IMG/VR virus record: IMGVR_UViG_3300009151_000035
Coordinates: 1 to 64,000 of that record
Origin: a virus
Strand: one strand, 5' to 3'
Length of the DNA stretch: 64,000 bases
Shown here: positions 13,301 through 51,626 of the stretch, in pieces
Numbering within the stretch: position 1 is the stretch's first letter
How the letters are laid out: every line of letters starts with the position of its first letter
Notes under the pieces: generated by a model
What the model saw: the letters and a program-made list of their open reading frames with translations, nothing else
What the model was told of the DNA's origin: nothing
Databases searched by the model: none
Made by a program: the position numbers and the translations under genes

Positions 13301-16300
13301 TGTGTAATTGTAAACTTGCACCGTGTCAAAAACCTGACTGGTAGTGTAACTTACTGTATATGTTGATGTAGTGAATACTGGAGTGGCCGGCAGCATGTCA
13401 CTCCAATAGAATGGATTGCTTGCTGTGCGGCCTAGTGTGATTTCAGCTATCACCAAATCAAGAACTTGCGATGCAGTTTGATACTGTATGGTTTGTCTGG
13501 TCACAGCTTCCAGCATTTGATTTTTGTACTTTTGGTATTCTCTGCTGTTGTATTCCAGCGCACCAAAAATGTTGTACTGCTGAGACCGCATGAAGTATCC
13601 AGCAAGAGTCAGTGGCGAGCTTTGTTGTAAAATCACTTGTCCGTAAGGTATAATGTCACCAAGGTCTCTAGTGTTATTTGCACCATTTATCGAGCCAGAA
13701 AATGTGGTTAAATTTTGACAGATGCTGTTGTAGTGAGTGCGCAATGTGCCCAATGTAAAATTTGGGCTGTCAGCATTAAGTGCATTGTTATTGAGATTTA
13801 AAGGGACTTGATAAAACGCCACCTGGCTCACTTGGTCGCTGAGTACTTCAACTTCAATTACATCCCCTACCACATGTACAGTGCTGAATGTAATGGTTGT
13901 AGTATTAGCAGTGATTGCAACTGTGTATGTGCCTGGATCTTGAAATATTGATCCCACAAATACTTTTACACTGGGCACAGTAGTTACTGCGTTTGATTGC
14001 ACAGCAACATCCAGTTGCAACGGTTGCAAATTATACACAAATTTAAACTGCTGGCGCATCAACGTTGGTACTGCCGCAGTTTGCCAGCCAATCAATCTTT
14101 CATATGCAGTTCTTGACGCATACTCATAAACAAATCCCAAACTGATTGGTGCTGTGGTGCTGGTATTGTTGATCACATACACAAATGTATCAGAATACAA
14201 ATTGTTATCAAACACAATATCACCAACGTTGGTCAAATTGAGATACTTGAGCGCCAACTGCAACACTGGGTCCGCAGTGCCTGTACCAGTTGCGTAACTA
14301 AACAATTTTGTACCCACAAATGTGGAACTTGGATATGTTATACGGTCAGCCAAACTTATACCATTGGCATCATATATGTCAAACAATGGCGCTTGTTGCA
14401 CTGAGGTTTTTTGCTGTGCTTCTAACCAGTTTGTCCCATCATACCAATAGGTAATACCAACTTGTGATTCACTCAAACATGTGACAGTTTGATCAACAAA
14501 TATTTCACCGTCTGTTGCTTCAACCAAATTTATAATTGGCTGCGCAATCAGTGGTGGCACAGTATCTGGCGTAACAAAATTCACCACATACAGTTTTCTG
14601 CGCACAGCAAGATCGGCATCTGCTGCAAATATCACACGACTGCCATTGACAAATGTATAACCGTTAACCGAGTACCCAGTGCTGCCTTCAACATTGCTGA
14701 ACGCATCAGTTTCAGTGAAGTCAATTGTATCTACTGGTTGTTTGGCTTCTGTCCCCATGTTATACAATCTAATACCACCACGGAATTGTATAATTGGTCG
14801 CTTGCCTTTAAAATTGTTGTCTATTGTGACTGGAGTATCGTTGTATACACCTGTGGCATTGAGTACATCAATGTGGAACCAACAATTGCTACGACTCCAT
14901 GCATTCAAATCAGGACTGTCGCGATTGATTGTGAGATAATCAATATCGTGATTGTATTGTTCTGGGGTGATATAATTTGCTACAGGCAATAGTTCAATTG
15001 CTGTGCCAACACCGCTTACATAATACTGTGGATTTTGACTGGTGGTAGCAGTCATGGTTCCATTTGCAGAAGTCAATGTCACTGCTGGACCATTTATAGT
15101 TACACTTACTTTAAATTGGCTACTGCTAAACACAGTGTGAACATAGTAGGTAACGCCAGTGGTCACTCCACCAAATGTATTGCCAGTGAAAACAATCTGT
15201 TGCCCTACAGTCATTCCCACTGTGGATTCAGTTGTGATAAGGTTGATACCAGCCGCAGTGTTTATACAAACAAATGCATTGGATCTAGTGGCATAGCTGG
15301 CAGGTGATACGTCACCTAGAAACTGAACCTTCAATCCGTTAGTAAACGTCACACCATTTGGACTGGTGTAGTTTTTCTTGCCCAGTATATCCTGAATGTA
15401 TAATGTACTGATGCTGGCTTGTTCAATCAATCGTATGGTGCCAAAAATTTCAGGGTCAGTACCATCTTGGTAATACAAAGTATCTAGCTTGGCTGTAAGC
15501 TGAGGCATCTCAACAATGTATCCAGATTGATTTTTGTACCATTGTGTGCTAGAATATTCAGTACCATAACGTATGGTCCATCTTTCTAAGTTGGCTATGT
15601 TTAGAATGCTGCCCAATGATAGATAGGTATAAGCACCAACAACAACATAACTTATACGCCATACGCTGTAGTAATTGGTGGCAGGATTGCCTGCGCTGTT
15701 GGCAAACACTAATGTTCTTGTGTTGAGGTCAGTAATGCCATCAATGCCACCATAGGTAGCTATGAATTGATCCAATCTTGCACCGTCAATGTTTTCAAAA
15801 AACAAATCAGTAACAAGATCAACAGCTCCAATACTGGTAAGACCGTAGAAAAAATCTTGTGCTGTTTTTTGTGGCACATTAAAATTAATTACACCAAGAT
15901 CAATGCCATTGTCTGTAACACCATAAATGGATCTGGAAGAGATGTTTGGCGTTGTGGGGGTTCTTCCATTGACTCCTGGAGCAGTTTGAATCCAAAATCC
16001 TGGACCATCCCCAGGTTCAGCATTGACTATACTGATAGTTCCACGCATGAGACTTTGATTCTCACACGAGTAATACAGTGTGTCTGGTGCGTCTTGTGGC
16101 ACAGTAAACGTCACTGTACCTGTGATTGATCCATTGCGAGAGACACCTGAATTGTACTGATCACCTGTGCCTGTGGTCGGAGCAGTTTTGATCCAGAATG
16201 GAAAATCGCCTTGCACAAACAAATTAAATGTATATGTGTTGCCCCGAATCAAGGTGATGGTGGCATTGGGTTCGTTGTCAATATTGAAACTGGTAACGTT

Positions 16301-16915
16301 GGTACGTGTTACTCGATAGTTGACTGTTTCTTTATTGTTTTGTGCTACCTGGAATGTGTAGTTTCCGCCTCGCACCAAATTCAATGTAGGATTGTTTCCG
16401 GTCACGCCCGAAAATGTATAAACACCATTTTCTCTGTTTACAATAAAATTTTGACTCAGCGCAGCTCCTGGCGATTGCACAGTGACTACATCAGGACCGT
16501 TTGGAACCCAATAGTACTGGCTGAAGTTTACAAATGTGTCAAAGTCAATGAAAGGATCAAGACAATAGTAGTCGCTGGTGTACAATCGGCTAGGTTGTGT
16601 TGATGGGCTACCTTGATACACCAACGTATCAGTTATACCTGGATAGGTAATGGCATCTACTATTTTGCTATTGTCAGTGGGACTGATGCTGATAACTCCA
16701 GGTTCAAGCTGGTAGTCAGCACGAGTTTTTGTTGGCTCGATCACATACTTGTCATTGGGATTTACACCAGGGCCAACAGTACGGCCAATATAACCTTGAG
16801 TCTTTTTAAACTTTGGTTCTTGAATCAGCTGATCCAATGTAGCAGCCAGAAACTGCTTGTTGGCGTCAGTCTGAAAAATCTCAGGAAGAAAATCTACACT
16901 GCGTACTCGTGCCAT
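1340..16915 (-). CDS. Giant (~5,190 aa) multidomain virion protein, baseplate wedge / tail-appendage type
   Basis: Uninterrupted ORF. ATG at 16915 overlaps the upstream stop (TGATG). Contains FG-GAP-like repeats, beta-rich Thr/Gly/Asn modules and tail-fibre modules; directly downstream of the gp6-like gene. Confidence 0.85.
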
Positions 16916-19900
16916 CAAATTACTCCGCTACCTGGTGCAGTACGCAAGTTGGTACTGGTCAATGCATCAATTACAATAATGTTGTCAATGGTAGCGCCGT
17001 TAACAAATATTTCATTGGGTTCTGCTCTTACTTCGTACATGTCGCCAAAGTATTTTTGTGTGTCTAGTGGCACTAGTACCACCGAACTAATTATGGTTCC
17101 AAGATATCTGTGCAAGTATGCTGCCAGTTCTGAAAAATAGAATGTGTCTCCAAAATTCCATTTATCAATACTGAAGTATTCATTCATAGCTGCCAATACA
17201 GAACTTTGGATTTCACTCACACTGGCTGTGGAATTTTGCGCACGGATAACTTTGATTGTGGCTTGTAATGTTTTGGCTGCTTTGGGACCAAACAGTGGTT
17301 TGAACACTACAGAATTTAACACAATGTTGTCGCTGATCATTTTGTATTCATTTAGACCTTGATACTGTGTACTAAGTTCATCAATGGTTGGCATATCAGG
17401 TTCAGACACTGTGCCAGTGGTATCTGTAATCCAATTCTGATAGGCAGTATAATATGATTGCGTAACCACGTACAAGTCAATGATGTTGGTAGTACCTGGA
17501 TCGATTCTGTTGGTAAGTGGTGAGTTGTGGCGATATTGGAAAAACAACGCCTGGCGACCTGTTCTAGCAATCCATTCACCTTGGGCTGCAGGTGTTATAA
17601 CTCTCACACCTGCGGTATTAATTGTCAATGTATAGAACAATTCATCACTGTAAGCATAAAAAACCTGACCGGGAGAATATTGAAATTTTATCAATTCAAG
17701 ACTATCATATGTGGGGTAATCTGAATTTACTACACCTGGTTCTACCAGCAAATATCTTTGCAGATTGTCAAAGTCAACAGTGCGTTGCAAAAACACCAAT
17801 TTGAGGTTAGGAGTAACTGTTGGGGCAACAATCTCATCAAAAAAGTCTGGATTGTCTGGCACACCATCGCTGTCACTATCTCTATAGCTGATCAATACTT
17901 GAAAGTCATCAACATATCCGTCTGACTCTACTGGTTGGCCAATAATTGTGGTATAGATATCGCCAGGCAAGGGTGACGAGCTGTCGGGTTTGGTGTTTAC
18001 TGCCAACACATTGATAAAATCTCTAATTGTAGTACCTGTGCGACTGTCATAAATCTTTTGATTGCCATAAAAGAAAAATCTTGTTTGCAACACCGATCCA
18101 AAGTAATAGGCAAGTCCACGGAATGTAATGGTGTACCGATTGTTCACTACTACAAACTGCACCAACCAACTGGCATCTAAATTGTTTCCTGATGTGTTGC
18201 CTGCATAAGTTTGACTCCAAGTTGCATCAGCATTTAGATTGGTGCTTGTAATCAAATACCAAGTGCCAGCGGTGCCAGTAATAGAACCAGTATTGTCATA
18301 TCCAAGACCAAAATTTCTATACAACACAATTTGTTGTGTCATTTGTTCTCTTAGAGACAATACTAAATCGGTCAAAAATACAGGGATAATAGTGTCAACA
18401 ACTGCACCAGTGGGCACAAAATTATTGAGTGCCACTGGACCCTCGCCACTGGTTAAATTACCAGTGCCGTTGTTGCTGCCATCGCCCACTATAGCAATGG
18501 GGCTTGCCCAAATTTCCAAATGATCTTCTGGTCTAGTTGGTAGTCCTTGTTTTAATCTATTGTTTGCATCAAAATAATACGGCTGACCATTAATCACTGG
18601 AGGAATAAATCTAATCAAACTTTTTTGCACCACATACTTGAACGCAGTGCTGCTAAATGTGGGACCAACCAAAATTGGTGCGCCTAATGCATTTACAAAA
18701 TATCCTGTGGTTTCGTTGGCTATTGTTGTGCTTTGATTCCAAGTGCTTAGTGCTGTTTCGCCAGTGTTTACAGTTATTCTCGGAAAGTTAGCATAGTAAA
18801 ATTGATTGAAGGTGGCACCAACAATAGCAGGCTGCACTTGATTGATAATAAGATCAGAAATTTCATTGCGATTGATCCAACTGAACAGAATGGTAGGAAG
18901 AATATTATTTTTCCAAATTCCTCCATCGCTGGAAAATGTATTGGTGGATGAGTACTTGCCTGTGTTGTCCACAAGATCAAGATATCGACTGGTACCAATT
19001 GAAGCACGATTCAATGCCTTGCTCTTGATGATTGAATTGTAAAGAGTAAACGGGAACAAGTTATAATCTTCGCCGTTGACCATGCGATTCTGTGTGTAGT
19101 ATCTAGCAGGAGCACGTTGTTTGATAGCATCGATGCTTTCACGACTTTGAGCATTGCTAACAGGCTGTGTAATACCACAGGTGAATGTGATGGTTTGCAA
19201 ATTGCCATTGCGATCAACATAGCTGATTGGCAGCACCACATTTTGCATTTCGGCAGGATTGATAATGTATTGCAAGCCGTTTGAAGCACGAACATACGCA
19301 CGGAAAATGCCCACTGGAATCTCTGAAAACACTCCATCACCAAATACCATGGTGATCTGATCATTGGTTCTGCTGGTTACAGAAAAAATTGGTCTTAGCA
19401 TTGCAGTTTGTTCTGCAGCCGCTGAATAAATGTTTTCAGTATAAGTCCACTCTCGATTGATACTGCCCACATTGTCCAACTGGAACAACCAACGGTCTTC
19501 GTTGTTGACGCCATCAATGTTTATGTTTACTGTGCGATTGGCAATGCGTTCGGCCAAATTGAAGTCTTGGTTTTGCAAGGTGCCTTGTTTGAAAAAGAAA
19601 AAGAAACCGTTATTGGCCGATTGGTAACCTAGCTGGTCATTGCGATACAACACATTGAATGTGGCATTGGGTCTGGGACTGGGTTCATAAATATAGTCTC
19701 GGCCGGCTGTGGTCGAAGTGGTGGCTTCAAACGGCATGTTCACACCATCCACTGTGGCAGTGTAAGGAATCACCGGCAAGAATCCAGGCACTAGATTGAT
19801 ACCATATTCACTGGTATCTACGCCCAAAATGGTTTGACGGTTTGACGGACGGCCAATTTTTTGGCTGCTGACCAGTGATGAGTTAACAATAGCATTCCAT

Positions 19901-32692: not shown

Positions 32693-34452
32693 TCCAAATT
32701 CGTAATCTCACTGTTAAAAACTTTATGAGTGTAGGCGCAGCCACACAGGCTATTGACTTTGACCGTAATGACCTTACACTGGTGCTGGGGGAGAACTTGG
32801 ACTTAGGCGGTGATGGATCAAGAAACGGCACAGGCAAGACCACAATTATCAATGCGCTGAGTTATGCCTTGTACGGTCAAGCATTATCAAACATACGCAA
32901 AGACAACCTAGTAAACAAGACCAATGCCAAACACATGTTGGTCAGCCTAGATTTTCACATCAACGGCACAGACTATAAAATTGAGCGAGGACGCAAGCCC
33001 AATGTGCTCCGGTTCTATGTGAACAACGAACACAAGGCCGCAGAAGATGAGGCACAAGGGGATTCGAGAGAGACACAAGACGCCATAGAGCGTATTATCG
33101 GCATGAGCCATGACATGTTCAAACATGTGCTGGCGCTGAATACCTACACAGAACCGTTCCTAAGTTTGAAAGCCAACGACCAACGCACTATCATTGAACA
33201 GTTGTTGGGCATTACTCTGTTGAGCGAACGTGCTGACCGTATCAAAGAACTCAACCGGCAGACCAAAGATGCCATCCAGTCTGAAGAGTTCAGAATTCGT
33301 GCCGTACAAGAAGCCAACAAGCGTATTGAAGAACAAATACAGAGTTTGGAAAAGCGCCGGACCATGTGGCTGAAAAAGCAACAGGAAGATTGTGCAGGGT
33401 TTGCGCGGGCCATTGGCGATCTCGAACACATTGATATTGATGCCGAGGTGCAAGCACATAGAGACTTGGAAGCATTTCATATCAAGAAGAAAACCATAGA
33501 CGAAGCCAACCGGTACATTCGTCAAATTGCCGCAGATGATGCTAAACAACAAAAACTGTTGGACAAACTCAAGACAGAGATTGCAGCCTTAGACGATCAC
33601 AAGTGTCACTCATGTGGCCAGGACTTGCATGACAACAAACAAGATGAACTCAAGCAGGCCAAAGAAGAACTTTTACGTGATACTGCATTGCAATTGCTGG
33701 CCAATAACACTCAAACTCAAGAACATCAAGACACACTGGTCAGTTTTGGAGAATTGGGGATTGCGCCTACTGTGTTTTATGACACGCTAGAAGATGCCCT
33801 GAACCATCGCAACACTCTCAGCACACTTCGGACCAGTTTGGACACACGACAAACAGAATCAGATCCTTACACAGAACAAATCGCAGACATGCAGGGACAG
33901 GCCCTGCAGGTTGTAAGTTATGATCACTTGAACGAACTCACTAGAGTGCAAGACCATCAAGACTTCTTGCTCAAACTACTGACCTCAAAAGATTCGTTTG
34001 TGCGCAAGAAAATCATTGACCAGAACTTGAGCTATCTCAATAGCCGGCTCACACACTACTTGGATCGTATTGGACTGCCACACACGGTGAAGTTCATGAA
34101 CGACTTGAGTGTGAGTATCGAAGAACTAGGCCGTGAGCTGGACTTTGACAATTTGAGTCGCGGTGAACGCAATCGACTGATCCTTAGCATGAGTTGGGCA
34201 TTTCGTGATGTATGGGAAAGTTTATACTCACCCATCAACTTGTTGTTTATTGACGAGATGATTGACAACGGCTTGGACACACAAGGTGTTGAGAATGCAT
34301 TAGGTTTGTTGAAGAAGATGAGTCGTGAACGCCACAAGTCAATCTGGTTGGTCAGTCACAGAGATGAACTCACAAGTAGGGTAGAAAACATTCTCAAGGT
34401 CATCAAAGAAAACGGCTTTACCAGCTACAACACGGATGTAGAAATTGCGTAA
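32689..34452 (+). CDS. gp46: Recombination ATPase subunit (Rad50/SbcC-like), T4 gp46
   Basis: KNFMSVG, Walker A NGTGKTT, zinc hook CHSCGQ, signature LSRGE, Walker B LFIDE and H-loop SH. Confidence 0.95.
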   Translation: MIQIRNLTVKNFMSVGAATQAIDFDRNDLTLVLGENLDLGGDGSRNGTGKTTIINALSYALYGQALSNIRKDNLVNKTNAKHMLVSLDFHINGTDYKIERGRKPNVLRFYVNNEHKAAEDEAQGDSRETQDAIERIIGMSHDMFKHVLALNTYTEPFLSLKANDQRTIIEQLLGITLLSERADRIKELNRQTKDAIQSEEFRIRAVQEANKRIEEQIQSLEKRRTMWLKKQQEDCAGFARAIGDLEHIDIDAEVQAHRDLEAFHIKKKTIDEANRYIRQIAADDAKQQKLLDKLKTEIAALDDHKCHSCGQDLHDNKQDELKQAKEELLRDTALQLLANNTQTQEHQDTLVSFGELGIAPTVFYDTLEDALNHRNTLSTLRTSLDTRQTESDPYTEQIADMQGQALQVVSYDHLNELTRVQDHQDFLLKLLTSKDSFVRKKIIDQNLSYLNSRLTHYLDRIGLPHTVKFMNDLSVSIEELGRELDFDNLSRGERNRLILSMSWAFRDVWESLYSPINLLFIDEMIDNGLDTQGVENALGLLKKMSRERHKSIWLVSHRDELTSRVENILKVIKENGFTSYNTDVEIA

Positions 34453-35296
34453 GATCAAAGTATTACACCTTGAACCTACTGATGTGTGTCAGGCCGCATG
34501 CCCGGCATGTGCTAGAGAAACTGACCCAAAGTTCCGCAAGGATCAAAAACATAACTTGACCATTGGGCACATACAACGACATTTCAGTGATCGCAGGATC
34601 AAAAGTCTAGACAAAGTGTTCATGTGCGGCAACTATGGCGATCCAGCAGCAGGTGCTTACACTGGCGACATTTATAAATGGGTTAGGCAGCTGAACCCTA
34701 CCGTCACACTTGGTATGAATACCAACGGTGCTATACAAAACACTTTCTGGTGGCATGAAATTGGACGCTTGTTTAATCAGCCCCGGGACTATGTGGTGTT
34801 CAGTATTGATGGCTTGGAAGATACTAACAGTGTGTATAGAAAAGGTGTAAACTGGATCAAACTCATGCAGAATGCACAGGCATTTATCGAAGCAGGTGGT
34901 TCGGCACACTGGGATATGTTGATCTATCAACACAACGAACATCAAGTTGATAAGTGCGAGCAGCTGGCTCGAAACATGGGATTCCGTTGGTTCCGTGCCA
35001 AAGTCAGCAAACGACCACTCATTGGCAGACTGGAGTGGCCACGCAACTATCAGGCACAATCTTTTGACGGTGCAATCAAGTGTCATGCTCAACAAGAAAA
35101 AAGTGCTTATATAGATGCTAGAGGTAATCTCAGTCCTTGTTGCTGGATAGGTGCCACACAAACAGATTTTGTTCGCAGTGACTCAGTTGTGGACTTTTAC
35201 AAAAAGAAACATGGCATTTGTGTCGAAACATGCTCAACAGATCAATCACAAACAGCATTTTCAAATCAATGGCGTAAAGAGATAGAGTTATGTTAG
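34445..35296 (+). CDS. Radical SAM protein with C-terminal Cys cluster (SPASM/twitch-like)
   Basis: CQAACPAC (CxxxCxxC), GNYGDP, TNG, FSIDG and C...YIDARG.LSPCC...C..TC; TTG start overlaps the gp46 stop. Confidence 0.88.
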   Translation: MRKIKVLHLEPTDVCQAACPACARETDPKFRKDQKHNLTIGHIQRHFSDRRIKSLDKVFMCGNYGDPAAGAYTGDIYKWVRQLNPTVTLGMNTNGAIQNTFWWHEIGRLFNQPRDYVVFSIDGLEDTNSVYRKGVNWIKLMQNAQAFIEAGGSAHWDMLIYQHNEHQVDKCEQLARNMGFRWFRAKVSKRPLIGRLEWPRNYQAQSFDGAIKCHAQQEKSAYIDARGNLSPCCWIGATQTDFVRSDSVVDFYKKKHGICVETCSTDQSQTAFSNQWRKEIELC

Positions 35297-36300
35297 CAAC
35301 TTGGCATTTTCACATTGAGATATCCAGCAAGTGTACCTTGCGATGTCCTCGGTGCGCCCGCCAAGAAGTGCCCGATAGTCTTGTTAACACTGAACTAGAT
35401 TTAAAATTTTTCAAACGCAACTTCACTCCAGAGTTTGTGCGAGCCAATGTAGAGAAGATTACATTCTGTGGCGACGACGGTGATCCAATCTATGCACATG
35501 ATTTGGTACATGTGATTAGCTATCTCAAAAGTATACGACCTGTGGAGATTGTGATTGTCACCAACGGCTCGCACAAGAAGTTGACCTGGTGGACTCAGTT
35601 GGGCACTTTGTTGGACCATAACGACAGTGTGCATTTCAGCATAGACGGTTATGACAATGCCAGCAACAATCAGTATCGCGTGAACAGTGATTACGACAGC
35701 ATTATTGATGGACTACAAACATTGCGCAGAATGAGTGCCTGCCAGATCGTGTGGGCCGCTATTGCATTCAAGTTCAACGAACATCATATTGATACAATGA
35801 AAAAACATGCTCAACAACTTGGTGTAGATAGATTTCAGTTGACCAAGAGCACAAAATTTGGTAGTGTGTATCCATCTTACGGTGTAAACGATCCACTTGA
35901 ACCCAGCGTAAAATTTGTAAGCAGTAGCCACAGATTTGAACGCGAAGTTACACCTTTTTCAGAAACAGGCGAATGGACCGCAATTCCTCTTACAAATTTA
36001 AAACTATTCAATCAAACCAAAAGTCGCAACGGCGTAATTCCGTTATGCGAGATAGGCAACAAAGGATTGTACATTGATGCTCGTGGCAGGTTATTTCCCT
36101 GCTGTTGGGTGGCCAATAGATACAATCACAACTCAGACTGGCAACAACTAGCAAACACATTTGATCTAAACATAAAAACACTAACAAACGTATTGGCAGA
36201 TAACTTTTGGATTGAACAGTTCCAAACTTTTAAGTGGCAAGAATGTCAAACCAAATGCTCTAGTGCATTGGTTGACAAAAAATACGCTACTTCTTGGTAA
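35290..36300 (+). CDS. Radical SAM protein with SPASM/twitch-like domain
   Basis: CTLRCPRC, GDDGDP, TNGS, FSIDG, YIDARGRLFPCCW and C..KC. Confidence 0.9.
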   Translation: MLATWHFHIEISSKCTLRCPRCARQEVPDSLVNTELDLKFFKRNFTPEFVRANVEKITFCGDDGDPIYAHDLVHVISYLKSIRPVEIVIVTNGSHKKLTWWTQLGTLLDHNDSVHFSIDGYDNASNNQYRVNSDYDSIIDGLQTLRRMSACQIVWAAIAFKFNEHHIDTMKKHAQQLGVDRFQLTKSTKFGSVYPSYGVNDPLEPSVKFVSSSHRFEREVTPFSETGEWTAIPLTNLKLFNQTKSRNGVIPLCEIGNKGLYIDARGRLFPCCWVANRYNHNSDWQQLANTFDLNIKTLTNVLADNFWIEQFQTFKWQECQTKCSSALVDKKYATSW

Positions 36301-36334: not shown

Positions 36335-36763
36335 ATGACATGGCTTTATCAAGATACCCCAATTGAGACACTGCCCGAAGAATGTGTAGGTTTTGTTTAT
36401 CTAATCACAAATAATCTATCTGGACGCAAGTACATAGGCAAGAAACTCGCAAAATTTTCAAAAACAACATACAAAATAGTCAAACAAAAGAACGGCACAA
36501 AGAAGCGGAAGAAGATACGCTCAAAGATCGACTCAGATTGGAGAGAGTACTACGGGTCAAGCCCAGAATTAACCGCAGACGTAATCACCCTAGGCACCGA
36601 AAACTTTACCAGAGAAATACTTTACTATTGTAAATCAAAATCAGAATGTTCGTACATTGAAGCAAGAGAACAGTTCACAAGAAAAGTATTAGAATCAACA
36701 GATTATTATAACGGCCATATTCAAGTTCGTGTGCATGGCTCACACATCATAAACAAACTTTAA
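36335..36763 (+). CDS. GIY-YIG family endonuclease (free-standing, Seg-like)
   Basis: GFVYLITN..SGRKYIGKK...W..YYGSS...FTREIL...E...YYN matches the GIY-YIG catalytic domain; no extra DNA-binding domain. Confidence 0.85.
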   Translation: MTWLYQDTPIETLPEECVGFVYLITNNLSGRKYIGKKLAKFSKTTYKIVKQKNGTKKRKKIRSKIDSDWREYYGSSPELTADVITLGTENFTREILYYCKSKSECSYIEAREQFTRKVLESTDYYNGHIQVRVHGSHIINKL

Positions 36764-37135
36764 TCACGACTCTGTGCTGAGTGTTTGACTCAGCCCCATT
36801 GAGGAACGGTGCGATACCCGGTCCAGACTTGGGCGTCAAAGGCAACTGTTAACTTAAGGCAGCAAATGGTTTGGGCTCTGTGAAAAAGCAACCCATGCTC
36901 GTAGGACTTGGATCTATTTCGGGTTACTAGGGTTCCGTTGATATGTGAAGCTAGAGTAGGGGGTACCGGTCAACCGCCTCCGTGTTGGAAACAACAATCT
37001 CTTTAGAATAGATGACTGGGCTACTCGGATGATGCTCTCTCATGTTCACCGTGCATACGGTGAATTATGACCAGTTAATCTGGATGATACTAAGTCAAGA
37101 AAACAGTTCGTTGTTGAGCGATAGCGAAAAACAAC
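36764..37135 (+). ncRNA. Candidate structured non-coding RNA (or structured origin-like element); orientation inferred
   Basis: Longest intergenic stretch in the window, without a track ORF, holding at least 8 stems, a GAAA tetraloop and G-U pairs that favour the plus strand, and closed by a terminator-like hairpin. Confidence 0.55.
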
Positions 37136-37158
37136 AGACTTGCGTAGCAAGTCTTTTA
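37136..37158 (+). terminator. Intrinsic terminator-like hairpin at a convergent junction
   Basis: AGACTTGC-GTA-GCAAGTCT (8-bp perfect stem) followed by TTT, abutting the stop codon of the convergent minus-strand gene. Confidence 0.6.
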
Positions 37159-37500
37159 ATCATCTAAGTTAGTATCTGGCCAATCTCTAAACAGTGCATG
37201 TTGAATTGTACCTGAAACAAACTGATTGAATGACTTGTGTTTGTCTTCCAGTTCGCCTTTGAGTGGTGCTACTCGACGGAATGCTGAGTCCATTTGCCCC
37301 ATGTCCCGGAACTCCATGAGTATCATCCATTCAGGCATGTCTGCGATTGAACGGAATCCCATCTTGCATCTAGTGATTCTGTATGACTCCATCTTGCCTT
37401 CTGAGATCAAATGATCAAAGAAACTTTTCATTCCATTCACCCAGTCAAGGTCAGTGATGTCGCCTTCTTTGTCTGCCCAAATTGTATATAAGTCTGCCAT
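37156..37500 (-). CDS. Hypothetical protein, dimeric alpha/beta-barrel-like (DUF6614-like)
   Basis: 114 aa; YTIWAD...FFDHL..EGKMESYRITRCKMGF.....EW.I.MEF.DM.Q.DSAF. Family call from memory of the motif. Confidence 0.6.
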   Translation of the reverse strand: MADLYTIWADKEGDITDLDWVNGMKSFFDHLISEGKMESYRITRCKMGFRSIADMPEWMILMEFRDMGQMDSAFRRVAPLKGELEDKHKSFNQFVSGTIQHALFRDWPDTNLDD

Positions 37501-37502
37501 GT

Positions 37503-37937
37503 TTACTCCAGTGGTCCTAGTATTTCAAATCCCGCCATGCTAGATTTGTATAAGTGTGCTTGCTCAAGGTACAGGTATTGGAATCCTCGTTCCTTGTAGA
37601 TAGCACACTCTGCTTTCATTGTTTCAATGCCCAAGCGTAGCTTTGGATTGTTGTAGTTCCATGCAAACTGATCGCATAGTGCATTGTGGTTATCGTAGCG
37701 TTTGATTAAACTAAACGCCACTAATTTATCTCGGTCGTAGTAACCAATAACATCAGTCATTGAATCTGTGTAACGACTGTCAAATATAGGCATTACACTT
37801 GCAAAATGTTTGTATTTGCAGTAGTCCCTGTAGATTGTGTTTAGTTGCTTGATATCAGGTTCAAACAAGTACTCCCACTTCACAGTTGGCGTATAGTTTG
37901 TTTTTGCTAGATCAATTCTGGCAAACTGATAGCTCAT
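37503..37937 (-). CDS. Arginyl/leucyl-tRNA-protein transferase C-terminal-domain-like protein (ATE/Bpt, GNAT fold)
   Basis: IYRDYCKYKH...YYDRDKLVAFS...FAWNYNNPKLRLG...ECAIYKERGFQYLYL parallels the ATE_C pattern LY.RY...H...Y..GKLVAV...F.DPD....SLG....I..A...G..Y.YLG. Confidence 0.6.
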   Translation of the reverse strand: MSYQFARIDLAKTNYTPTVKWEYLFEPDIKQLNTIYRDYCKYKHFASVMPIFDSRYTDSMTDVIGYYDRDKLVAFSLIKRYDNHNALCDQFAWNYNNPKLRLGIETMKAECAIYKERGFQYLYLEQAHLYKSSMAGFEILGPLE

Positions 37938-38434
37938 CTCGGATCCTGTCGATGTTCAAATAAACCAACAAGATATTCTTCTGGCCAGTTGTGATAGAAT
38001 CCCTTGTCAGCCATCAGTTTGGCTTTGGCATCAAGGTCGCTTAGGCTTTGCACTAGAGCCAGTGCATATGTGCCTTGGTTCATGCAAACACCGTTCACCA
38101 TTTCCACATCTGAGGGATGATCCTCTAGTGCAAGGAGATTGTTGCACAACAAATGTTCTTTGTTGGCATTTTTCAAACTGTCACTGAACAACTCATATGG
38201 CCATTCTACTGGATCGTATGCATAGATTACAACTTCCCAGCTGCCCATGCCCCACCGAGCTTGATTTTGCAAATCAAAGTAAGGATCAACTCCCACTCGA
38301 ACGTCATAGCTTTTTTTCATTCGTGCTGAGCGTGCATATGGACAGGGTGCCCAACCACCCAGAGCAGGATGCGGAACTTCCACAAAGTTCACGATCCACT
38401 GTTCTATATCTTGAGTGACTGTATCTAAGTCCAT
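37934..38434 (-). CDS. Hypothetical protein with PCPYA motif (DUF1415/DUF6875-like)
   Basis: 166 aa; DIEQWIVNFVEVPHPALGGWAPCPYA and DHP...LVQ.LS.L motifs; overlaps both neighbours. Confidence 0.6.
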   Translation of the reverse strand: MDLDTVTQDIEQWIVNFVEVPHPALGGWAPCPYARSARMKKSYDVRVGVDPYFDLQNQARWGMGSWEVVIYAYDPVEWPYELFSDSLKNANKEHLLCNNLLALEDHPSDVEMVNGVCMNQGTYALALVQSLSDLDAKAKLMADKGFYHNWPEEYLVGLFEHRQDPR

Positions 38435-38610
38435 TAGAAGAAAGGCAATCCAGATTTTTTAGTTGTTTCCATGTTGTCTTTGGCCAGTTCTGAAATCATT
38501 GATCTTTCACTACTGCTGAGCAACAACACTTGATCGTAGGTTATACCGCCACGCATGTACCAAGCCAATTTGAAGCTTTCTTCGCGAATTGACTTGGCCT
38601 CCTGCTCCAT
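38434..38610 (-). CDS. Small tail/baseplate assembly chaperone C-terminal part (gp51/gpT-like), probably expressed via -1 frameshift
   Basis: Below the track cutoff: MEQEAKSIREESFKLAWYMRGGITYDQVLLLSSSERSMISELAKDNMETTKKSGLPFF*. The frame stays open upstream to the slippery site at 38664-38670; TAATG overlap with the next gene. Confidence 0.75.
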   Translation of the reverse strand: MEQEAKSIREESFKLAWYMRGGITYDQVLLLSSSERSMISELAKDNMETTKKSGLPFF

Positions 38611-38648: not shown

Positions 38649-39491
38649 TCAGGAGGCGTTGTCGAAAAAAGTCGCTGTATCCAATGTGAACTGCTGTTGA
38701 TATTCATGCTGGCACTCGGGACACTGCATGTCAATAGGTTTGAAATCATCATTCATGCGTAGTTTGATAGCATGATCTCTTATTTGCACATATAGATTTC
38801 TATCACAATTCAATAGAAATTCATGAATATGCCCCGGCTCAGTGACCAAGGCTTGCGGAGTCCGTATGCCTTTGATGCTGTTTTTGATTGCTTTTACTGT
38901 GATCTCTGTTATGGCCAGGATGGCTTGATTCATGCGTTTGGATTTTTCTTCGTCAGACATGTCAGCAGTGGGTAATTGGTTTAGCACTCGCTGTTGTTCA
39001 AACTGCAATAAATTCACATCTGTTTGACTTTGATAATTCATTGGATTAAAGAAAATTTCAAGATCACCGTGACGCACAGTTTCGGCATAGTCTGACATGC
39101 CCAACTGAGCCATAACAGCTTGTAAATCAATATCAAATTCATGTGTTTCGTTACAGGCCGGACAATCGGACGTCAACGGCATGGCTTTGCCAAAACTAGC
39201 AATACGTATGGCAGTGAGTATGGCATTTAAATCGCAGTTGGGCATGTGCCAGGCATTTTTAATGTTTGGCATACAACTTTGTACCACAGTCACAACTGCG
39301 GCTCCATTGAATAGCGCATCTGGAGTGCGATAAGATATTTCGTCCATGGCAGTCATGGGCAACACTGGCAGTTCACGATTGACTGGAATATCTATGCTGC
39401 CTTCTGGCCAAAACTGGCCATCGCTGGGCAGTCGAATGTAGATAGCAGGTTGTCGGAAGAAAGCCTTTAGTGGGTTCGCATTTTGGGTCAT
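38649..39491 (-). CDS. Baseplate hub assembly / tail chaperone protein, T4 gp26-like
   Basis: IRLPS.G..., PMTAMDEI, D..AIL.AIRIASFG, two CxxC pairs (CPAC, CPEC) and a C-terminal FF; divergent from the tape-measure-like gene. Confidence 0.75.
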   Translation of the reverse strand: MTQNANPLKAFFRQPAIYIRLPSDGQFWPEGSIDIPVNRELPVLPMTAMDEISYRTPDALFNGAAVVTVVQSCMPNIKNAWHMPNCDLNAILTAIRIASFGKAMPLTSDCPACNETHEFDIDLQAVMAQLGMSDYAETVRHGDLEIFFNPMNYQSQTDVNLLQFEQQRVLNQLPTADMSDEEKSKRMNQAILAITEITVKAIKNSIKGIRTPQALVTEPGHIHEFLLNCDRNLYVQIRDHAIKLRMNDDFKPIDMQCPECQHEYQQQFTLDTATFFDNAS

Positions 39492-39525: not shown

Positions 39526-39533
39526 GATTGACC

Positions 39534-42500
39534 ATGGCCATGACAGAAGAAGAATTAGCAAGAATGAGTGCTCAAATTGAGCTGACTACCGAAGCCTTGT
39601 CAAAATTTACTGGAGCCATGTATGGCGCAACTCCAGAACAACTTGCGGCGTCCAAAGCAGACAAAGACGCTGCAAAAGCTGCGGCTCAATTTCAAGCCAG
39701 ACTGGATACAGCCACTGCTGCTGTTGGTGCACTAGCAGGTGTTTTTGTAAACTACAATAAAGAAGTTTACAAAAGTGGTAATGCTAATAAAGCTGCGGCT
39801 GCTTCTATTGAAAGCATGGGCGAAGCAGCCAAGTATGCAGGTGCATTTTTAGCACTGTTAGTGCCTGGCGGGCCGTTGGTCAAAGCAGCCGTTGCCGGAT
39901 TGGGACTGTTAGCCAGTGAGTTGATCAAGTCTGGCAAGTTGATTGCTGAACAAACTGACGAGATATACAAAGCCTATCAGGACATGGCCAAAGCAGGTGC
40001 TGCTGGCGCTGGTGGAATGCAGGATGTGTTTGACAGCTTGCAAAAAGTGGGCATGGGCACAGAAAAATTTGGCGCCTATATCAAACTGGTCAACGAAAAT
40101 GCCAACGATCTTGCAGTATTTGGAGGTTCGGTAAACAAAGGTCGCAAGATCTTTGAAAACACCATGTCATCGTTGAGTACAGAACAACGAGTTCAAATGG
40201 AACAAATGGGCCTGGATAGAGAAGCTCAAGCCACAGCCACAATGGCTTACATCAAACAACAACGCTTGTTGACTCAAGGCACCAAATCTCAAATGGATAC
40301 CAGCAGTGCTGCTGTGATGAAATACATTCAAGAAACGGACACACTCACACGTCTTACCGGTCTCAACAGACAAGAACAAGAAAAACTTCATGACGATGCC
40401 ATGCGTAACGAGGCATACAATGCTACCATGCAAGAAATACGTGAGACACAAGGCGAAGAAGGTGTGCGTCGAGTGCAAGAAGCTGCGGCCATGGCTCAGA
40501 AAGCTGGTCCAGAAACATTCAAACAATTCCAAGCCAGCTTGTCGGGTTTTGTGGGATCTAGCAATGAAGCACAGCAGGCGTTTATGGCCACTGGTGGGAA
40601 AATAGCCGAAGTGACAGATGCATTGCGCAGTGGACAGGTAAAGAACACCAAAGAAACTGCTGTTGCCATGAATGGCTTGTTCAAGGCATATGGTGAAACT
40701 GCTCAACAGTTTAGAGGACAAGCCAAGATGATGAACTACGGTCCAACTTTTGGCAGTTACTACGAAGCAGTCAAAGCCGGATCAATGAGTCTTGAATCTT
40801 TGGCAGAAGTTGTTGCACAAGTTGACAATGCTGAAGAAGAACGCAGAAAACAACTAGCTGATCCTAAGACCAAAGCAATGGCAGAAGCCATGAATGCCAC
40901 TGTTGATCAACAACTCAAACTACAACGTGGAGTAAACATGGGCATGGATGCTTACATCACAGGATTGGGTAAAGTGACCAATGCTAATGCAACAGCACTT
41001 GATATACTAGGCAACGCCGCTAGATCAGCCGCCGAAGCATTGGGATTAATTGGTGGTGGTAAAAAAGTTCAACAATCAGCAGCAGTTCAAGATGCCACAA
41101 AAGCCACTGCTGCCACAAGAGACACAGCTAAACCTTTACAAGACCGTGTTGATGCACTGAACAAACAAATAGACGAAGATGAAAAAACCCTCAAAGAAGC
41201 CAAGCGTGCTGGTAAGAGTGTGGCAGAAATGGCGGCCCTTGAAGAAAAAATTAAAAAAACTAAAGACGAAGAACTTATTGCAGCAAAAGAGTTAGATGCT
41301 CAAGATCAAATAATCAAGCAAGCACAAAATAAGGAAACAGCGATTCGAAAAACACAAGTGGCCGAACAAGGCAAGATGAATCGTCTTGAACGAGCAATTA
41401 ATCAAGAAAAAGAGCAACTGGCCGAACTCAACGAAGCAAAGTACAATCTTGAAAAATATTTAGCACAGTCAGGAACTGATGCAAAAACACTTGCAGCTGG
41501 TCGCAAGCGAGTGGCATCATTACAAGAGTCTATTGACAAAAAACAAAAATCACTGACAGAACAACAATCAGAATTAACTAATCTACAGAAAAAACTTGCG
41601 CCACCAGGTGCCGCGCCTGCGGCAGCACCGGCAGGAGGAGCACCGGCAGGAGGAGCACCTGCAGCAGCACCAGCAGCACCGGCAGGAGGAGCACCTGCAG
41701 CAGCACCAGCAGCACCGGCAGGAGGAGCACCGGCAGGAGGAGCACCACCAGCACCGGCAGGAGGAGCACCTGCAACTCGAGGAGCAATGCCACCTGCTCA
41801 AGGTCGTAAAGAAGTAAGTTTAGAAGAACTACAAGCAAAAAAACAAAGACTAGTAAGGGCTGGACCAAGAACCAAAAATCAACAATCAATTGAGTCTCAC
41901 GAAGAAGAACTGAAAACATTAGACATGGCTATTGCTGAAAAGTCCAAACAAGTAAAAGATATTAAAGATTACTTGCAGTTTGGTGGAGAAAGCGGTAGCG
42001 AGACTTCTTTCAAAGGTCTCTCTCCAGACTTGCAACAAGGTATTCTTACAGCAGCCAAACAATATAAGGAATCAACTGGAAAACCGCTGACCATAAACAG
42101 TGCCGCTAGAACTCCGGAGAAACAAAAAGAACTTTATGATAAATGGGTTGCTGGCGGGAAAAAAGGAATGCCAGTGGCTCCTCCGGGCTCTAGTTTGCAT
42201 GAACAAGGTAAAGCTGTTGATATTCAAGAAGGCATATCTTCGTCAGTTGCTATAGCAGCATTGAATTCCCAAGGGCTATTTCAAACTGTACCTAACGATC
42301 CAGTACATTTTCAACCAAAAGCATTTGGTGATGGCGGCGTTGTAAACAAACCAACACTTGCGCAGATTGGTGAAAAAGGTCCAGAGGCAGTGATTCCGCT
42401 CAAAGGTGGGCAAGTTCCAGTACATATAAACAGTGATAGTATGAGCGCCCTAGGTGGCGGTGGCTGGAGCGAGCTTCAAGGCTACAACATGGGTGCAATC

Positions 42501-42947
42501 ACTACCGACATAGCGGTACTACAAAAAATTGCTGGCAAGTTGGGAGCATATGACAAATCAACCGAGATGATCACTGATCCAAAACTCTGGAAAGAAATCT
42601 TACAGTCGGGCATGTTGATGAACTATGATGTAGGCGCAGCTAGAATTGGAACCAAAGGGCTGTCTGAGATAGCAGGTTCAGAAGCTGTGGCTGATGCACT
42701 TGCTGGTCGAATCAAAGAACTGATTGACACCAAGAAAGACAGTGGCGAAGCAATTGCTCAAACTAGAACTGAATTTGCGGACATGATGAAAACATTCTAT
42801 ACAGATTTCTTTGCCAAGATGCAGGAGGAAATGCGAAAAGAAAGTCCATTGGATTCAGAGATGCTGGCTGTACTAAAAGACATTAGCAAAACAAACGCTG
42901 CCGCAGCAGGATCTAGCGAAAAGATGTTGCGTTACTCACAAAACTAA
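39534..42947 (+). CDS. Tape-measure-like protein with C-terminal peptidase M15 (VanY/D-Ala-D-Ala carboxypeptidase-like) domain
   Basis: Long Ala/Gln/Lys-rich helical protein; SAARTPEKQKELY...SLHEQGKAVDI...NDPVHFQ is the M15 zinc motif; FGDGGVV..PTLA.IGEKGPEAVIPL is common in tape-measure proteins. ATG at 39534 preferred over TTG at 39528. Confidence 0.78.
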   Translation: MAMTEEELARMSAQIELTTEALSKFTGAMYGATPEQLAASKADKDAAKAAAQFQARLDTATAAVGALAGVFVNYNKEVYKSGNANKAAAASIESMGEAAKYAGAFLALLVPGGPLVKAAVAGLGLLASELIKSGKLIAEQTDEIYKAYQDMAKAGAAGAGGMQDVFDSLQKVGMGTEKFGAYIKLVNENANDLAVFGGSVNKGRKIFENTMSSLSTEQRVQMEQMGLDREAQATATMAYIKQQRLLTQGTKSQMDTSSAAVMKYIQETDTLTRLTGLNRQEQEKLHDDAMRNEAYNATMQEIRETQGEEGVRRVQEAAAMAQKAGPETFKQFQASLSGFVGSSNEAQQAFMATGGKIAEVTDALRSGQVKNTKETAVAMNGLFKAYGETAQQFRGQAKMMNYGPTFGSYYEAVKAGSMSLESLAEVVAQVDNAEEERRKQLADPKTKAMAEAMNATVDQQLKLQRGVNMGMDAYITGLGKVTNANATALDILGNAARSAAEALGLIGGGKKVQQSAAVQDATKATAATRDTAKPLQDRVDALNKQIDEDEKTLKEAKRAGKSVAEMAALEEKIKKTKDEELIAAKELDAQDQIIKQAQNKETAIRKTQVAEQGKMNRLERAINQEKEQLAELNEAKYNLEKYLAQSGTDAKTLAAGRKRVASLQESIDKKQKSLTEQQSELTNLQKKLAPPGAAPAAAPAGGAPAGGAPAAAPAAPAGGAPAAAPAAPAGGAPAGGAPPAPAGGAPATRGAMPPAQGRKEVSLEELQAKKQRLVRAGPRTKNQQSIESHEEELKTLDMAIAEKSKQVKDIKDYLQFGGESGSETSFKGLSPDLQQGILTAAKQYKESTGKPLTINSAARTPEKQKELYDKWVAGGKKGMPVAPPGSSLHEQGKAVDIQEGISSSVAIAALNSQGLFQTVPNDPVHFQPKAFGDGGVVNKPTLAQIGEKGPEAVIPLKGGQVPVHINSDSMSALGGGGWSELQGYNMGAITTDIAVLQKIAGKLGAYDKSTEMITDPKLWKEILQSGMLMNYDVGAARIGTKGLSEIAGSEAVADALAGRIKELIDTKKDSGEAIAQTRTEFADMMKTFYTDFFAKMQEEMRKESPLDSEMLAVLKDISKTNAAAAGSSEKMLRYSQN
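41625..41774 (+). repeat. In-frame tandem repeat encoding an APAGG/APAAAP linker
   Basis: GCACCGGCAGGAGGA occurs 6 times (41625, 41640, 41676, 41712, 41727, 41751); a 36-nt unit is perfectly duplicated at 41640-41711. Confidence 0.9.
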
Positions 42948-49890: not shown

Positions 49891-50931
49891 ATGGATCCTA
49901 TATTTGTAACAGAAAAAATTGATACAACCAACAGCAGAGCTTACCTTTGGCCGCTGATTCCAAAAGATTCAGTAGTAATCACTCAGAATATCATATACAC
50001 TATCAATGATATACCCAATCTAAAAGCACATTTGCCCGATGTAGGAGATCAACCAATTTACTATGATTTATCTTACAGTCCTGAAGTATTAGATACTGAA
50101 CACATAACTGGTATTTTTGATAAGTTGAAAGAAATTGCCCCACTCAAAATTATAGTCAACGAATACAAAAAATTTTACAATCCACACAAAGATTTTATAT
50201 TTTTTCCACTGGTTTTTTATTCATACTCATATGGTGCTTATCAGATTCCGATAAATCGTGTTGACTTGCCAAAGTTTGAGAAAAAAATAAAACCATTTAT
50301 GAGTCTAAACAATCGTCCAATATGGCACAGAATTTGGTTGTTTACTGAATTGGCCAGCAACAATTTGCTTGACAAATTTGACTACTCATTTGTATGGAAT
50401 CCAAAAGTAAATTGTCCCGGCATGGAACACCAACTTGATCTGCTGCCTGATCAAAAACGTATACAAGCAGAATCCATGCTGGATTTACTTCCCATTAGAT
50501 TTGAACATGAAAAACACAAAGACTTCAATGCAGATCAATACACCAGTCTTAAAATCCACAATGAATGCGCTGTAAACATTGTAACTGAAAGTTGTCCAAA
50601 TTTGGGTTTTTTAACTGAAAAAATATGCAAGCCATTGGTGTGTTATCAAATTCCCATACTGTTAAGTCATGCCGGTGCCACACAATTTTGTCAGGATGCA
50701 GGATTTGATATGTTTGAGGACATCATACCTTGGCGCACGTGGGATCAAATTGAAGACGAACAAGAACGATGCATGGTTGCTTGCAAGTTTATTGTGGAGT
50801 ATATCAAACATGGTGATGCGTTGGCAGACTGGAACCGTTGTCAAGATAGAGTGATTGCCAATCGTGAACGCTTGGTCAGTGATGACTTTAAAAAATTTTG
50901 CACTGCACAATTCTATTTAGGCACACCATGA
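49891..50931 (+). CDS. Hypothetical glycosyltransferase-like protein
   Basis: FMSLNNRP.WHRIWL...AVNIVTES....FLTEKICKPL....GFDMF.DIIPW.TWD, shared with 48975..49859. Confidence 0.55.
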   Translation: MDPIFVTEKIDTTNSRAYLWPLIPKDSVVITQNIIYTINDIPNLKAHLPDVGDQPIYYDLSYSPEVLDTEHITGIFDKLKEIAPLKIIVNEYKKFYNPHKDFIFFPLVFYSYSYGAYQIPINRVDLPKFEKKIKPFMSLNNRPIWHRIWLFTELASNNLLDKFDYSFVWNPKVNCPGMEHQLDLLPDQKRIQAESMLDLLPIRFEHEKHKDFNADQYTSLKIHNECAVNIVTESCPNLGFLTEKICKPLVCYQIPILLSHAGATQFCQDAGFDMFEDIIPWRTWDQIEDEQERCMVACKFIVEYIKHGDALADWNRCQDRVIANRERLVSDDFKKFCTAQFYLGTP

Positions 50932-51626
50932 AAATATCAGAATCTAATACCTGCCCAGGGGCAGCAACTTTTCATCCTGGATCAATTTGCAATCTTGCCT
51001 GTGTGACATGTGGTCCTGAGGCCAGCACAAGATGGCAAAAAGAACTTGGTATTCCAATTGTTCCTGGCAACCCTCGTGACATTGATCCAGAGACTATCAT
51101 GAGAGCCAAACAAATGACTGGAGTGGTAATTTGTGGCGGCGAACCAATACTGAATCACAGTTCAGAAGTTATACTAGAACATCTAAATGTTGATCAAAAT
51201 ATAAGAATTCACTTCAATGGAACAGTAATGCCCAAACAAAGTTTCTTGGACAAATCTGCCAGATTTCAATACATTCAATATTGTTTCAGTATTGATGGAG
51301 TAGGTGAAAGATTTGAATACTTGCGCTGGCCTGCCAAATGGAATCAAGTGGTTGATAACATTTTGTGGTTGGTTAGTGCTGCACCTGACAATGTGGGGTT
51401 TGCTGTCAATATCACAGTTTCGCAATTGAACAAACCATATTATACCGAAGTGATTGATTGGATTGATCAAACTATACCCCAAAACAAGCAAGGCACGAAA
51501 ACAGTTGTAACTTTCAATCAAGCTGGTGATAATTTGCTGTCGCTAGATTACTTAGAGAGCATTGATAAAAAAAGAAATTTAGACTGGAGAGTATTGTTTC
51601 CAAAAGCAACAGAATATATTTTATGA
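50928..51626 (+). CDS. Radical SAM protein (short)
   Basis: CNLACVTC...S..W, GGEP, FSIDGVGERFEYLRWP..W; ATG at 50928 overlaps the upstream TGA. Confidence 0.85.
   Translation: MKISESNTCPGAATFHPGSICNLACVTCGPEASTRWQKELGIPIVPGNPRDIDPETIMRAKQMTGVVICGGEPILNHSSEVILEHLNVDQNIRIHFNGTVMPKQSFLDKSARFQYIQYCFSIDGVGERFEYLRWPAKWNQVVDNILWLVSAAPDNVGFAVNITVSQLNKPYYTEVIDWIDQTIPQNKQGTKTVVTFNQAGDNLLSLDYLESIDKKRNLDWRVLFPKATEYIL

Follow-up and report, generated by a model that had tools for sequence, protein, structure and literature searches.

The window analysed here is a stretch of 64,000 nucleotides of viral DNA (positions 1 to 64,000 of IMG/VR record IMGVR_UViG_3300009151_000035) and represents the first 64 kb of a 147.5-kb record that is estimated to be 42% complete. 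Its minus strand carries a cassette of three tightly linked genes, in the following called P1, P2 and P3, which is best explained as a tRNA-dependent pathway for an arginine or guanidino compound, i.e., as a tailoring or biosynthetic module (estimated probability about 0.45), and probably not as a tagger of proteins for degradation. From the sequences, the cassette is predicted to be a pared-down phage form of a known enzyme pair, consisting of a GNAT enzyme that depends on tRNA and a YqcI/YcgG-like protein. This reading, which joins tRNA-dependent amide formation with guanidino oxidation, is favoured because an ATE_C-like transferase, an AglA-like protein and an amidinotransferase recur, as in argolaphos. 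The members of the cassette are:

37934..38434, minus strand: P1, 166 residues, a protein with a cysteine motif (A-P-C-P-Y-A at residues 29-34), candidate heme-thiolate oxygenase
37503..37937, minus strand: P2, 144 residues, a GNAT domain of the ATE_C type only, candidate transferase dependent on aminoacyl-tRNA (probably Arg-tRNA)
37156..37500, minus strand: P3, 114 residues, a DUF6614 protein (PF20319 match), frequent third member of the cassette

The open reading frame listing and the sequence agree with the original prediction on the presence of three coupled genes of 166, 144 and 114 codons (with a TAATG junction, an ATGA junction and a 2-nt gap): the P1 and P2 genes overlap as ATGA, the P2 and P3 genes are 2 bases apart, and Shine-Dalgarno-like AGGA and GGAG precede P2 and P3, respectively. 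No promoter-like or terminator-like site was seen inside the transcription unit. The genes are real, as indicated by the many homologues of P2 and by AlphaFold models with a predicted local distance difference test (pLDDT) score of 94 for P2 and 93 for P1. The Pfam families that had been expected (ATE_C, DUF6875 and DUF6614) were all found, only DUF6614 scoring above its cut-off for the proteins of the window. NCBIfam gave no match for P1, P2 or P3, P1 was the only one of the three to match PHROGs (unnamed families), and direct sequence searches of the PDB with P2, P1 and P3 returned no meaningful match.

Homologues of P2 are numerous (2,983 in 90% clusters; 141 clusters at 50% identity; 306 IMG/VR stretches). 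P2 itself scored 18.0 bits against ATE_C (PF04377; Pfam cut-off 25), and homologues with 35-53% identity to it exceeded the cut-off (P0123, 33.5 bits; P0122, 28.8 bits; P0161, 26.2 bits). The cut-off was reached or approached by four of ten short-form representatives (P0122, P0123, P0161 and, more weakly, P0147) and by most of the long forms, i.e., relatives of 225-265 residues with scores of up to 49.2 bits (P0221). When a profile of 24 diverse short forms was compared with the PDB, the top five matches were distinct Ate1 arginyltransferases (E 0.03-0.1). No other GNAT family matched the P2 sequence at E<=1. ATE_N (PF04376) was found neither in the short P2 at E<=1 nor in the long forms at E<=10, the N-terminal extension of the latter being unrecognisable as ATE_N; P2 begins just past the position where the Cys cluster of Ate1 ends, and ATE_N is therefore missing. 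P2 is thus predicted to be a stand-alone homologue of the ATE_C domain, and the proposal of an ATE_C-like protein devoid of the N-terminal domain is upheld by the Pfam scores of the homologues, the PDB profile search and Foldseek alike.

Regarding individual residues, the profile alignment with Ate1 of K. lactis (klAte1), read together with the published description of that enzyme (PMC9351520), places Y130-K131 of P2 on the catalytic pair Y303-K304. Among the 24 diverse homologues, Y130 is invariant and K131 is present in at least 90%. The spacing W93-G103-E110-G118-L124 is the same as in klAte1 (W260...L291), W93 aligning with W260, T106 (Ser in most homologues) with S273 and E110 with E277 of the arginine pocket; this last position is a Glu in 21 of the 24 short forms, as it also is in the four long forms that were read. 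In klAte1, Lys304 is the catalytic lysine (equivalent to Lys305 of FemX), Glu277, the one residue with a charge in the arginine pocket, is essential for arginylation and is a Gln in the Leu-specific Bpt, and the active site is located between ATE_N and ATE_C (PMC9351520). Because the Glu and the Ser/Thr of the Ate1 arginine pocket are retained, the donor of P2 would most likely be Arg-tRNA. The pyrophosphate loop of acetyl-CoA-dependent enzymes (Q/RxxGxG/A, strand 4/helix 3) is absent from P2, which has N-P-K-L-R-L-G-I-E there, with a single Gly like the 'SLG' of Ate1.

Foldseek comparison of the P2 model yielded mostly aminoacyl-tRNA-dependent enzymes as top matches (MprF/aminoacyl-phosphatidylglycerol (aa-PG) synthases, Ate1, Sbb17). 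With VIA-align, the highest scores were those of the acetyltransferase VipF (Z 14.4), FemX (Z 14.3) and L-PGS (Z 14.2), human ATE1 reached Z 11.1, and dozens of acetyltransferases were found at Z 11-12. The class of the donor is not discriminated by the fold of P2 alone; it is discriminated by the sequence. Clusters of the ESM Atlas near P2 carry both ATE_C and PF13480.

P1 is characterized by the motifs PCP[YF]A and, further downstream, E-D-H-P. Cys31, His106, Gln129 and Tyr147 are invariant or near-invariant in phage and bacterial homologues, Cys31 being invariant in 18 of 18 diverse sequences from both sources; down to approximately 25% identity, the constant features are a Trp in helix 1, PC(P)[YF]A, (D)HP, a Gln and GYY..W. 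The nearest sequence families are DUF6875 and DUF1415, with all scores below threshold (P1 against DUF6875, 17.6 bits, cut-off 24.5; best scores among homologues, 22.8 bits for DUF6875 and 21.4 bits for DUF1415). When the P1 model was compared with 48,161 chains using VIA-align, the best match was AglA (9ub3_A; Z 6.5, root-mean-square deviation 4.0, 152 of 166 residues aligned), which alone scored above Z 5, the second match being at Z 4.2. Foldseek of the same model against the PDB gave nothing at E<=0.001 and template modelling (TM) scores of 0.45-0.50 only. The PCP of P1 (residues 30-32) and its E-D-H-P (residues 104-107) are reminiscent of two motifs, PCP and EHD, in heme-thiolate peroxidases such as chloroperoxidase and the unspecific peroxygenases, the folds of which differ from that of P1.

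The prototype of the YqcI/YcgG family is AglA from Streptomyces monomycini, in which a four-stranded sheet is flanked by helices on both sides; the enzyme ligates its heme via Cys44 after the first helix and N-hydroxylates the guanidine of AMPn-Arg (PMC12866846); an N-terminal cysteine is absolutely conserved in the family (PMC2922099). The Pfam model of this family (PF08892) had no match at E<=10 in the genome of the window. It scored 11.7 bits (cut-off 27; E 0.28) against the P1 homologue of locus L114, and its weak alignment on a P1 homologue from Bdellovibrionales begins exactly at PCPFA. An hhalign comparison of the P1 family with five YqcI/YcgG members from Bdellovibrionota was not significant (probability 0.15%). 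In both of these weak alignments, neither of which is significant, the Cys of P1 is placed on that of YqcI/YcgG. AglA was also not among the matches when the PDB was searched with a member of the YqcI/YcgG family. The binding of a heme by P1 through a thiolate is plausible, and the redox or heme step that had been suggested for the Cys protein fits its sole standout structural match, a heme-thiolate enzyme. In a single case, from a divergent clade, inspection by eye revealed a small gene 1 kb upstream of P1 that is ferredoxin-like and has a CxxCxxxC...CP pattern (L104:3226-3552); its product could be the redox partner of a heme enzyme. Distant relatives of P1 (approximately 25% identity) occur in the deposited records of phages HMO-2011, CRP-345, CRP-810 and S-SCSM2R, and in cultured marine phages the distant P1-like genes adjoin 2-oxoglutarate-Fe(II) oxygenases.

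P3 matched DUF6614 (PF20319) with E 8.3e-21 and 74.6 bits (cut-off 25) over 107 of the 116 profile positions. It has approximately 25 invariant positions, many of them charged, and searches with P3 revealed no informative relatives. The gene was present in the window and in 89 of the first 104 loci, and also in the divergent clades L096, L097, L098, L104, L110 and L143. In 24 of 80 loci of close relatives, a gene of the nucleoside phosphorylase/nucleosidase family (PNP_UDP_1) overlaps the 3' end of the DUF6614 gene (L001:8770-9303); this gene is absent from the window, where no remnant of it was found.

Of 112 P2 loci, 100 have P1 directly upstream in the same orientation, and in 84 of these the two genes overlap by 4 nt. 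The remaining loci include four artefacts of the predicted gene start and two without room for the gene, the exceptions being the long-form clade L010-L012 and one short contig. In L139, P1 and P2 are on opposite strands. The pairing is maintained among homologues with as little as 28% identity and where the surrounding genes are unrelated, and the survey of loci confirmed that the three genes co-occur widely. The neighbours of the pair are the genes for ribonucleotide reductase (RNR), MazG and glutaredoxin in L009 and L110, ThyX in L141, and gp26 in the lineage of the window and in L096. The tail-assembly setting of the original prediction thus applies to this lineage, in which the cassette lies behind gp26, and not elsewhere, where the pair is found among RNR, ThyX, MazG and glutaredoxin genes; the link with tail genes is therefore positional.

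Regarding the lineage itself, the markers found are those of a T4-like myovirus (Portal_T4, a gp23-like major head protein and a T4_baseplate gene, together with a gp21-type prohead protease in relatives). The complete genomes of close relatives measure 329-364 kb and have terminal repeats, and this is therefore a jumbo phage lineage, consisting of large aquatic phages that are represented by metagenomes only. Compared at both the nucleotide and the protein level with 50,697 deposited phage genome records, the region gave no match, and no relatives of P2, of two divergent P2 homologues or of P3 were found among these records.

After P1, the most conserved partner of the cassette is a gene for an amidinotransferase of the L-arginine-dependent type with 360-400 residues; 8 of the 12 P2 loci taken as representative have it as a neighbour. 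The profile of this neighbour family matched the amidinotransferases HsvA, SxtG, AGAT and StrB1 with E 3e-38 to 6e-33, and its members have the GHxD and the C-terminal HC motifs. The arrangements are:

L098, L104 and L110: amidinotransferase gene between P2 and P3
L097: two copies of the amidinotransferase gene after P3
L009, L103 and L108: amidinotransferase gene after P2
L139: amidinotransferase gene and a long-form P2 in divergent orientation, P1 being convergent

In five complete cassette-bearing jumbo-phage genomes (four of them close relatives), the amidinotransferase profile has 2-6 matches at sites away from the cassette. Homologues of P1 were also found without P2 on chromosomal contigs of Bdellovibrionales (up to 710 kb), where an amidinotransferase gene follows immediately and radical-SAM/SPASM genes and a gene for a probable pyridoxal phosphate (PLP) enzyme (SxSK motif) are flanking. 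Genes of the radical-SAM type also occur in the window:

34445..36300, plus strand: two radical-SAM/SPASM-like paralogues that converge with the cassette from just beyond its terminator (PHROG 21308, radical SAM)

These paralogues matched the radical-SAM gene of a P1/amidinotransferase cluster in a Bdellovibrio metagenome-assembled genome (E 2e-38 and 4e-18), and a third radical-SAM gene of the window (50898-51626, plus strand) is likewise homologous to radical-SAM genes of such Bdellovibrionales clusters (E 2e-19). Tentatively, and on the basis of these similarities, the radical-SAM genes of the window may act in one pathway with the cassette. Of the three roles proposed originally, i.e., tagging of host or defence proteins for degradation, modification of virion proteins and the making of a small metabolite, the last is the best supported, given the linkage to the amidinotransferase and the occurrence of P1 in biosynthetic-looking bacterial clusters.

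The closest known counterpart is the pair AglC and AglA of Streptomyces monomycini, in which an amide-forming enzyme of the GNAT type that depends on Arg-tRNA is combined with a Cys-ligated heme enzyme (PMC12866846, PMC8976061). AglC makes AMPn-Arg from Arg, arginyl-tRNA synthetase (ArgRS) and tRNA, and AglA then hydroxylates the AMPn-Arg (PMC12866846); in the argolaphos cluster, AlpD (= AglA, YqcI/YcgG) is encoded two genes from AlpF, a PF13480 GNAT protein annotated as 'aminoacyl-tRNA ligase' (PMC8976061; PMC11705231), and, judging from gene order and accession numbers, AglC would be the same as AlpF. The best structural match of P1 is AglA itself, and relatives of P2 match both ATE_C and PF13480, the family of AlpF. 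The phage proteins differ in being smaller (P2, 144 residues versus 342; P1, 166 residues versus about 243-274), in that P2 has one GNAT domain instead of two, in that P1 is below the PF08892 threshold, and in that the phage loci lack phosphonate genes, the partners being the amidinotransferase and DUF6614. Other YqcI/YcgG enzymes (DcsA, GntA, Mhr24 and ChmN), which act on arginine or guanidine substrates and are encoded in biosynthetic clusters (PMC12866846; PMC2922099), share with P1 an N-terminal invariant Cys (theirs after the first helix), whereas P1 represents a separate, shorter sequence family nearest DUF6875/DUF1415 (below threshold) and is a candidate heme binder.

Compared with Ate1 and Bpt, P2 retains the Tyr-Lys pair and the equivalents of Trp260, Ser273 and Glu277 of klAte1 with the same spacing, but lacks ATE_N and with it the Cys4 metal site and the pocket for an acidic N-terminal residue. 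It further differs from Ate1 in a deletion of six residues before Tyr-Lys, in that the basic tRNA-binding helix is not evident, in its coupling to P1 and in its size (approximately one quarter of Ate1). FemX, the MprF/aa-PG synthases, the L/F-transferase Aat and Sbb17/Sba18 have in common with P2 the GNAT fold (Z 12.5-14.3 over the whole of P2), and the acceptors in this group are small molecules or lipids; these proteins have no detectable sequence similarity to P2, and most are tandem-GNAT or membrane-anchored. The L/F-transferase illustrates that a single GNAT domain can be enough.

What the analysis shows is the structure and coupling of the genes, their family and fold relationships, the conservation of residues and the gene neighbourhoods. 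In the scheme that we infer from these, comprising the tRNA dependence, the identity of the donor, the heme binding, the acceptor and the product, P2 would transfer the aminoacyl group from aminoacyl-tRNA to an amine of a small molecule or short peptide, forming an amide bond. P1 would bind heme via Cys31 and oxidise the substrate or the product, e.g., by N-hydroxylation of the guanidine (cf. AglA), the amidinotransferase would make or remodel the guanidino group, and P3 may contribute an accessory step. A more specific version, in which the ATE_C-only arginyl transferase, the small heme-thiolate oxygenase, the amidinotransferase and the DUF6614 protein make an N-oxygenated arginine or guanidino metabolite during infection (for example, an antibiotic-like, signalling or nitric oxide-releasing compound), is conceivable and rather doubtful.

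Several observations weigh against the assignment to an arginine or guanidino pathway. No amidinotransferase gene is located beside the cassette in the lineage of the window, and none was found in the 147-kb record. P2 is itself below the ATE_C cut-off, the matches of its profile to Ate1 in the PDB are marginal, and its fold is equally near to acetyltransferases and tRNA-dependent enzymes (VipF versus FemX). A real weakness for tRNA dependence is that the short P2 has no evident counterpart of the basic helix with which Ate1 and the aa-PG synthases bind tRNA; in the long form P0221 this helix seems to be present (a Lys run after 'FTPN'). The link of P1 to YqcI/YcgG consists of a middling Z score together with two alignments that are not significant, and AglA is longer than P1 by approximately 80 residues. 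All complete relatives, moreover, encode ClpS, which fits with a role in an N-degron pathway.

That role, N-degron-type protein tagging, was the headline of the original prediction and is not the one indicated by the conserved neighbours (the amidinotransferase; P1 homologues without P2). P2 would add an amino acid to the N-termini of host or phage proteins, with P1 and P3 as accessory proteins, and the resulting destabilising residues (primary or secondary) would feed the ClpS of the phage and the ClpAP of the host. Ate1 and Bpt are the only sequence-level relatives of P2 with a known function. ClpS scored above the Pfam cut-off (E 1e-23 to 1e-26) in each of the seven relatives with a completeness of 63-100% and also in a 72-kb fragment (G001-G005, G161, G163 and G164; e.g., L144:1453-1761), and in L010 a long-form P2 is only 3.5 kb from ClpS. 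By eye, the phage ClpS retains N-D-D..T.M and the His, residues of the N-degron pocket of E. coli ClpS, and a phage-encoded ClpS is already known from jumbo phages (PMC7824862). ClpS is, however, widespread in jumbo phages generally; it was never found within the cassette, is 58-125 kb away in the three complete genomes for which the distance was computed, and occurs in 11 other fragments without P2 (completeness just 16-62%). Moreover, ATE_N, which forms the pocket for the acidic N-terminal residue of the acceptor, is absent and could not be recognised at E 10 even in the long forms. No known N-degron pathway has a role for the strict coupling of P1 with P2 or for the adjacency of the amidinotransferase, and the donor pocket looks Arg-like, an N-terminal Arg not being bound directly by bacterial ClpS. 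On balance, N-degron manipulation is unlikely.

A split enzyme, in which P1 replaces ATE_N and completes the acceptor site in a heterodimer with P2, the Cys binding a metal or cluster and not a heme, would account for the translational coupling (the 4-nt overlap in 84 loci), for the invariant Cys and His of P1 and for the location of the Ate1 active site between ATE_N and ATE_C (PMC9351520). It is quite improbable, as P1 has one invariant Cys instead of four, its fold is unlike that of ATE_N, to which it has no sequence similarity, and P1 and P2 are on opposite strands in L139; in addition, P1 homologues are common without P2 (Bdellovibrionales; HMO-2011, CRP-345, CRP-810, S-SCSM2R), and the P1 family therefore has a function of its own. 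It is very improbable that P2 is an ordinary acyl-CoA-dependent GNAT resembling ATE_C and that the cassette acylates a phage or host target: the sequence signal is specific for ATE_C, the pyrophosphate-binding loop is missing, the Tyr-Lys pair typical of Fem and Ate enzymes is conserved and Foldseek ranks mostly aminoacyl-tRNA-dependent enzymes at the top, even though the best VIA-align match is an acetyltransferase and dozens of others score above human ATE1. An anti-defence module, with the DUF6614 protein or perhaps the whole cassette neutralising a host immune system, goes back to a single, remote, prediction-level link, and the conserved enzymatic partners suggest chemistry and not a stoichiometric inhibitor; such a function is extremely improbable.

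The surroundings of the cassette in the window comprise the following features:

38649..39491, minus strand: gp26-like baseplate hub gene, 280 residues, which opens the transcription unit in this lineage
38434..38610, minus strand: conserved open reading frame of 58 residues, the stop of which overlaps the start of P1 as TAATG
37136..37154: hairpin with an 8-bp stem, followed by GTTGTTTTTC on the minus strand, ending the cassette

The gp26-like gene matched T4_baseplate (PF12322, E 9.5e-14) and PHROG 150 ('baseplate hub'), by which the earlier label of 'tail chaperone' for the gene upstream of the cassette is corrected to a homologue of the gp26 baseplate hub; immediately upstream of it is the late-promoter-like motif TATAAGTA. 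The frame of 58 residues gave no family match in Pfam or NCBIfam, and in the relatives L001-L004 a gene of 62 residues is called at the same position. The stem of the hairpin is followed by TTTT on the plus strand too, the structure being common to the convergent GIY-YIG gene region. In the latter region (36335-37135), the gene for a SegE-type GIY-YIG homing endonuclease (PF19835, E 9e-33) is followed by approximately 370 nt without an open reading frame. Positions 37013-37156 (approximately 145 nt) are 73% identical to the region downstream of the PNP gene of L001 and therefore represent conserved intergenic sequence. On the other side, a tape-measure-like protein of 1,139 residues (39528-42947, plus strand) contains an internal endolysin- or peptidase-like segment (PHROG 13118, 2649) and a long Ala/Pro/Gly repeat at about 41.55-41.85 kb, and the late-promoter motif TATAAATA is located 20 nt upstream of the start of its gene. 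A single open reading frame of 5,192 codons extends over positions 1340-16918 (minus strand). ARAGORN detected no tRNA or tmRNA gene in the 147.5-kb record (G000).

An active P2 would be the smallest of the known transferases that depend on aminoacyl-tRNA, and would show that the ATE_C half can work without ATE_N. If P1 binds heme, it would represent a new viral family of heme enzymes with a thiolate ligand, very abundant and related to the recently solved AglA fold. If N-degron manipulation were nevertheless the correct explanation, the combination of a phage ClpS with a trimmed transferase would be the first viral N-degron writer. A pathway to an N-oxygenated metabolite would be an undescribed kind of phage-encoded secondary metabolism, and an arginine or guanidino pathway that includes the amidinotransferase would mean that, in the course of infection, widespread jumbo phages draw off charged tRNA and arginine to make a small molecule.

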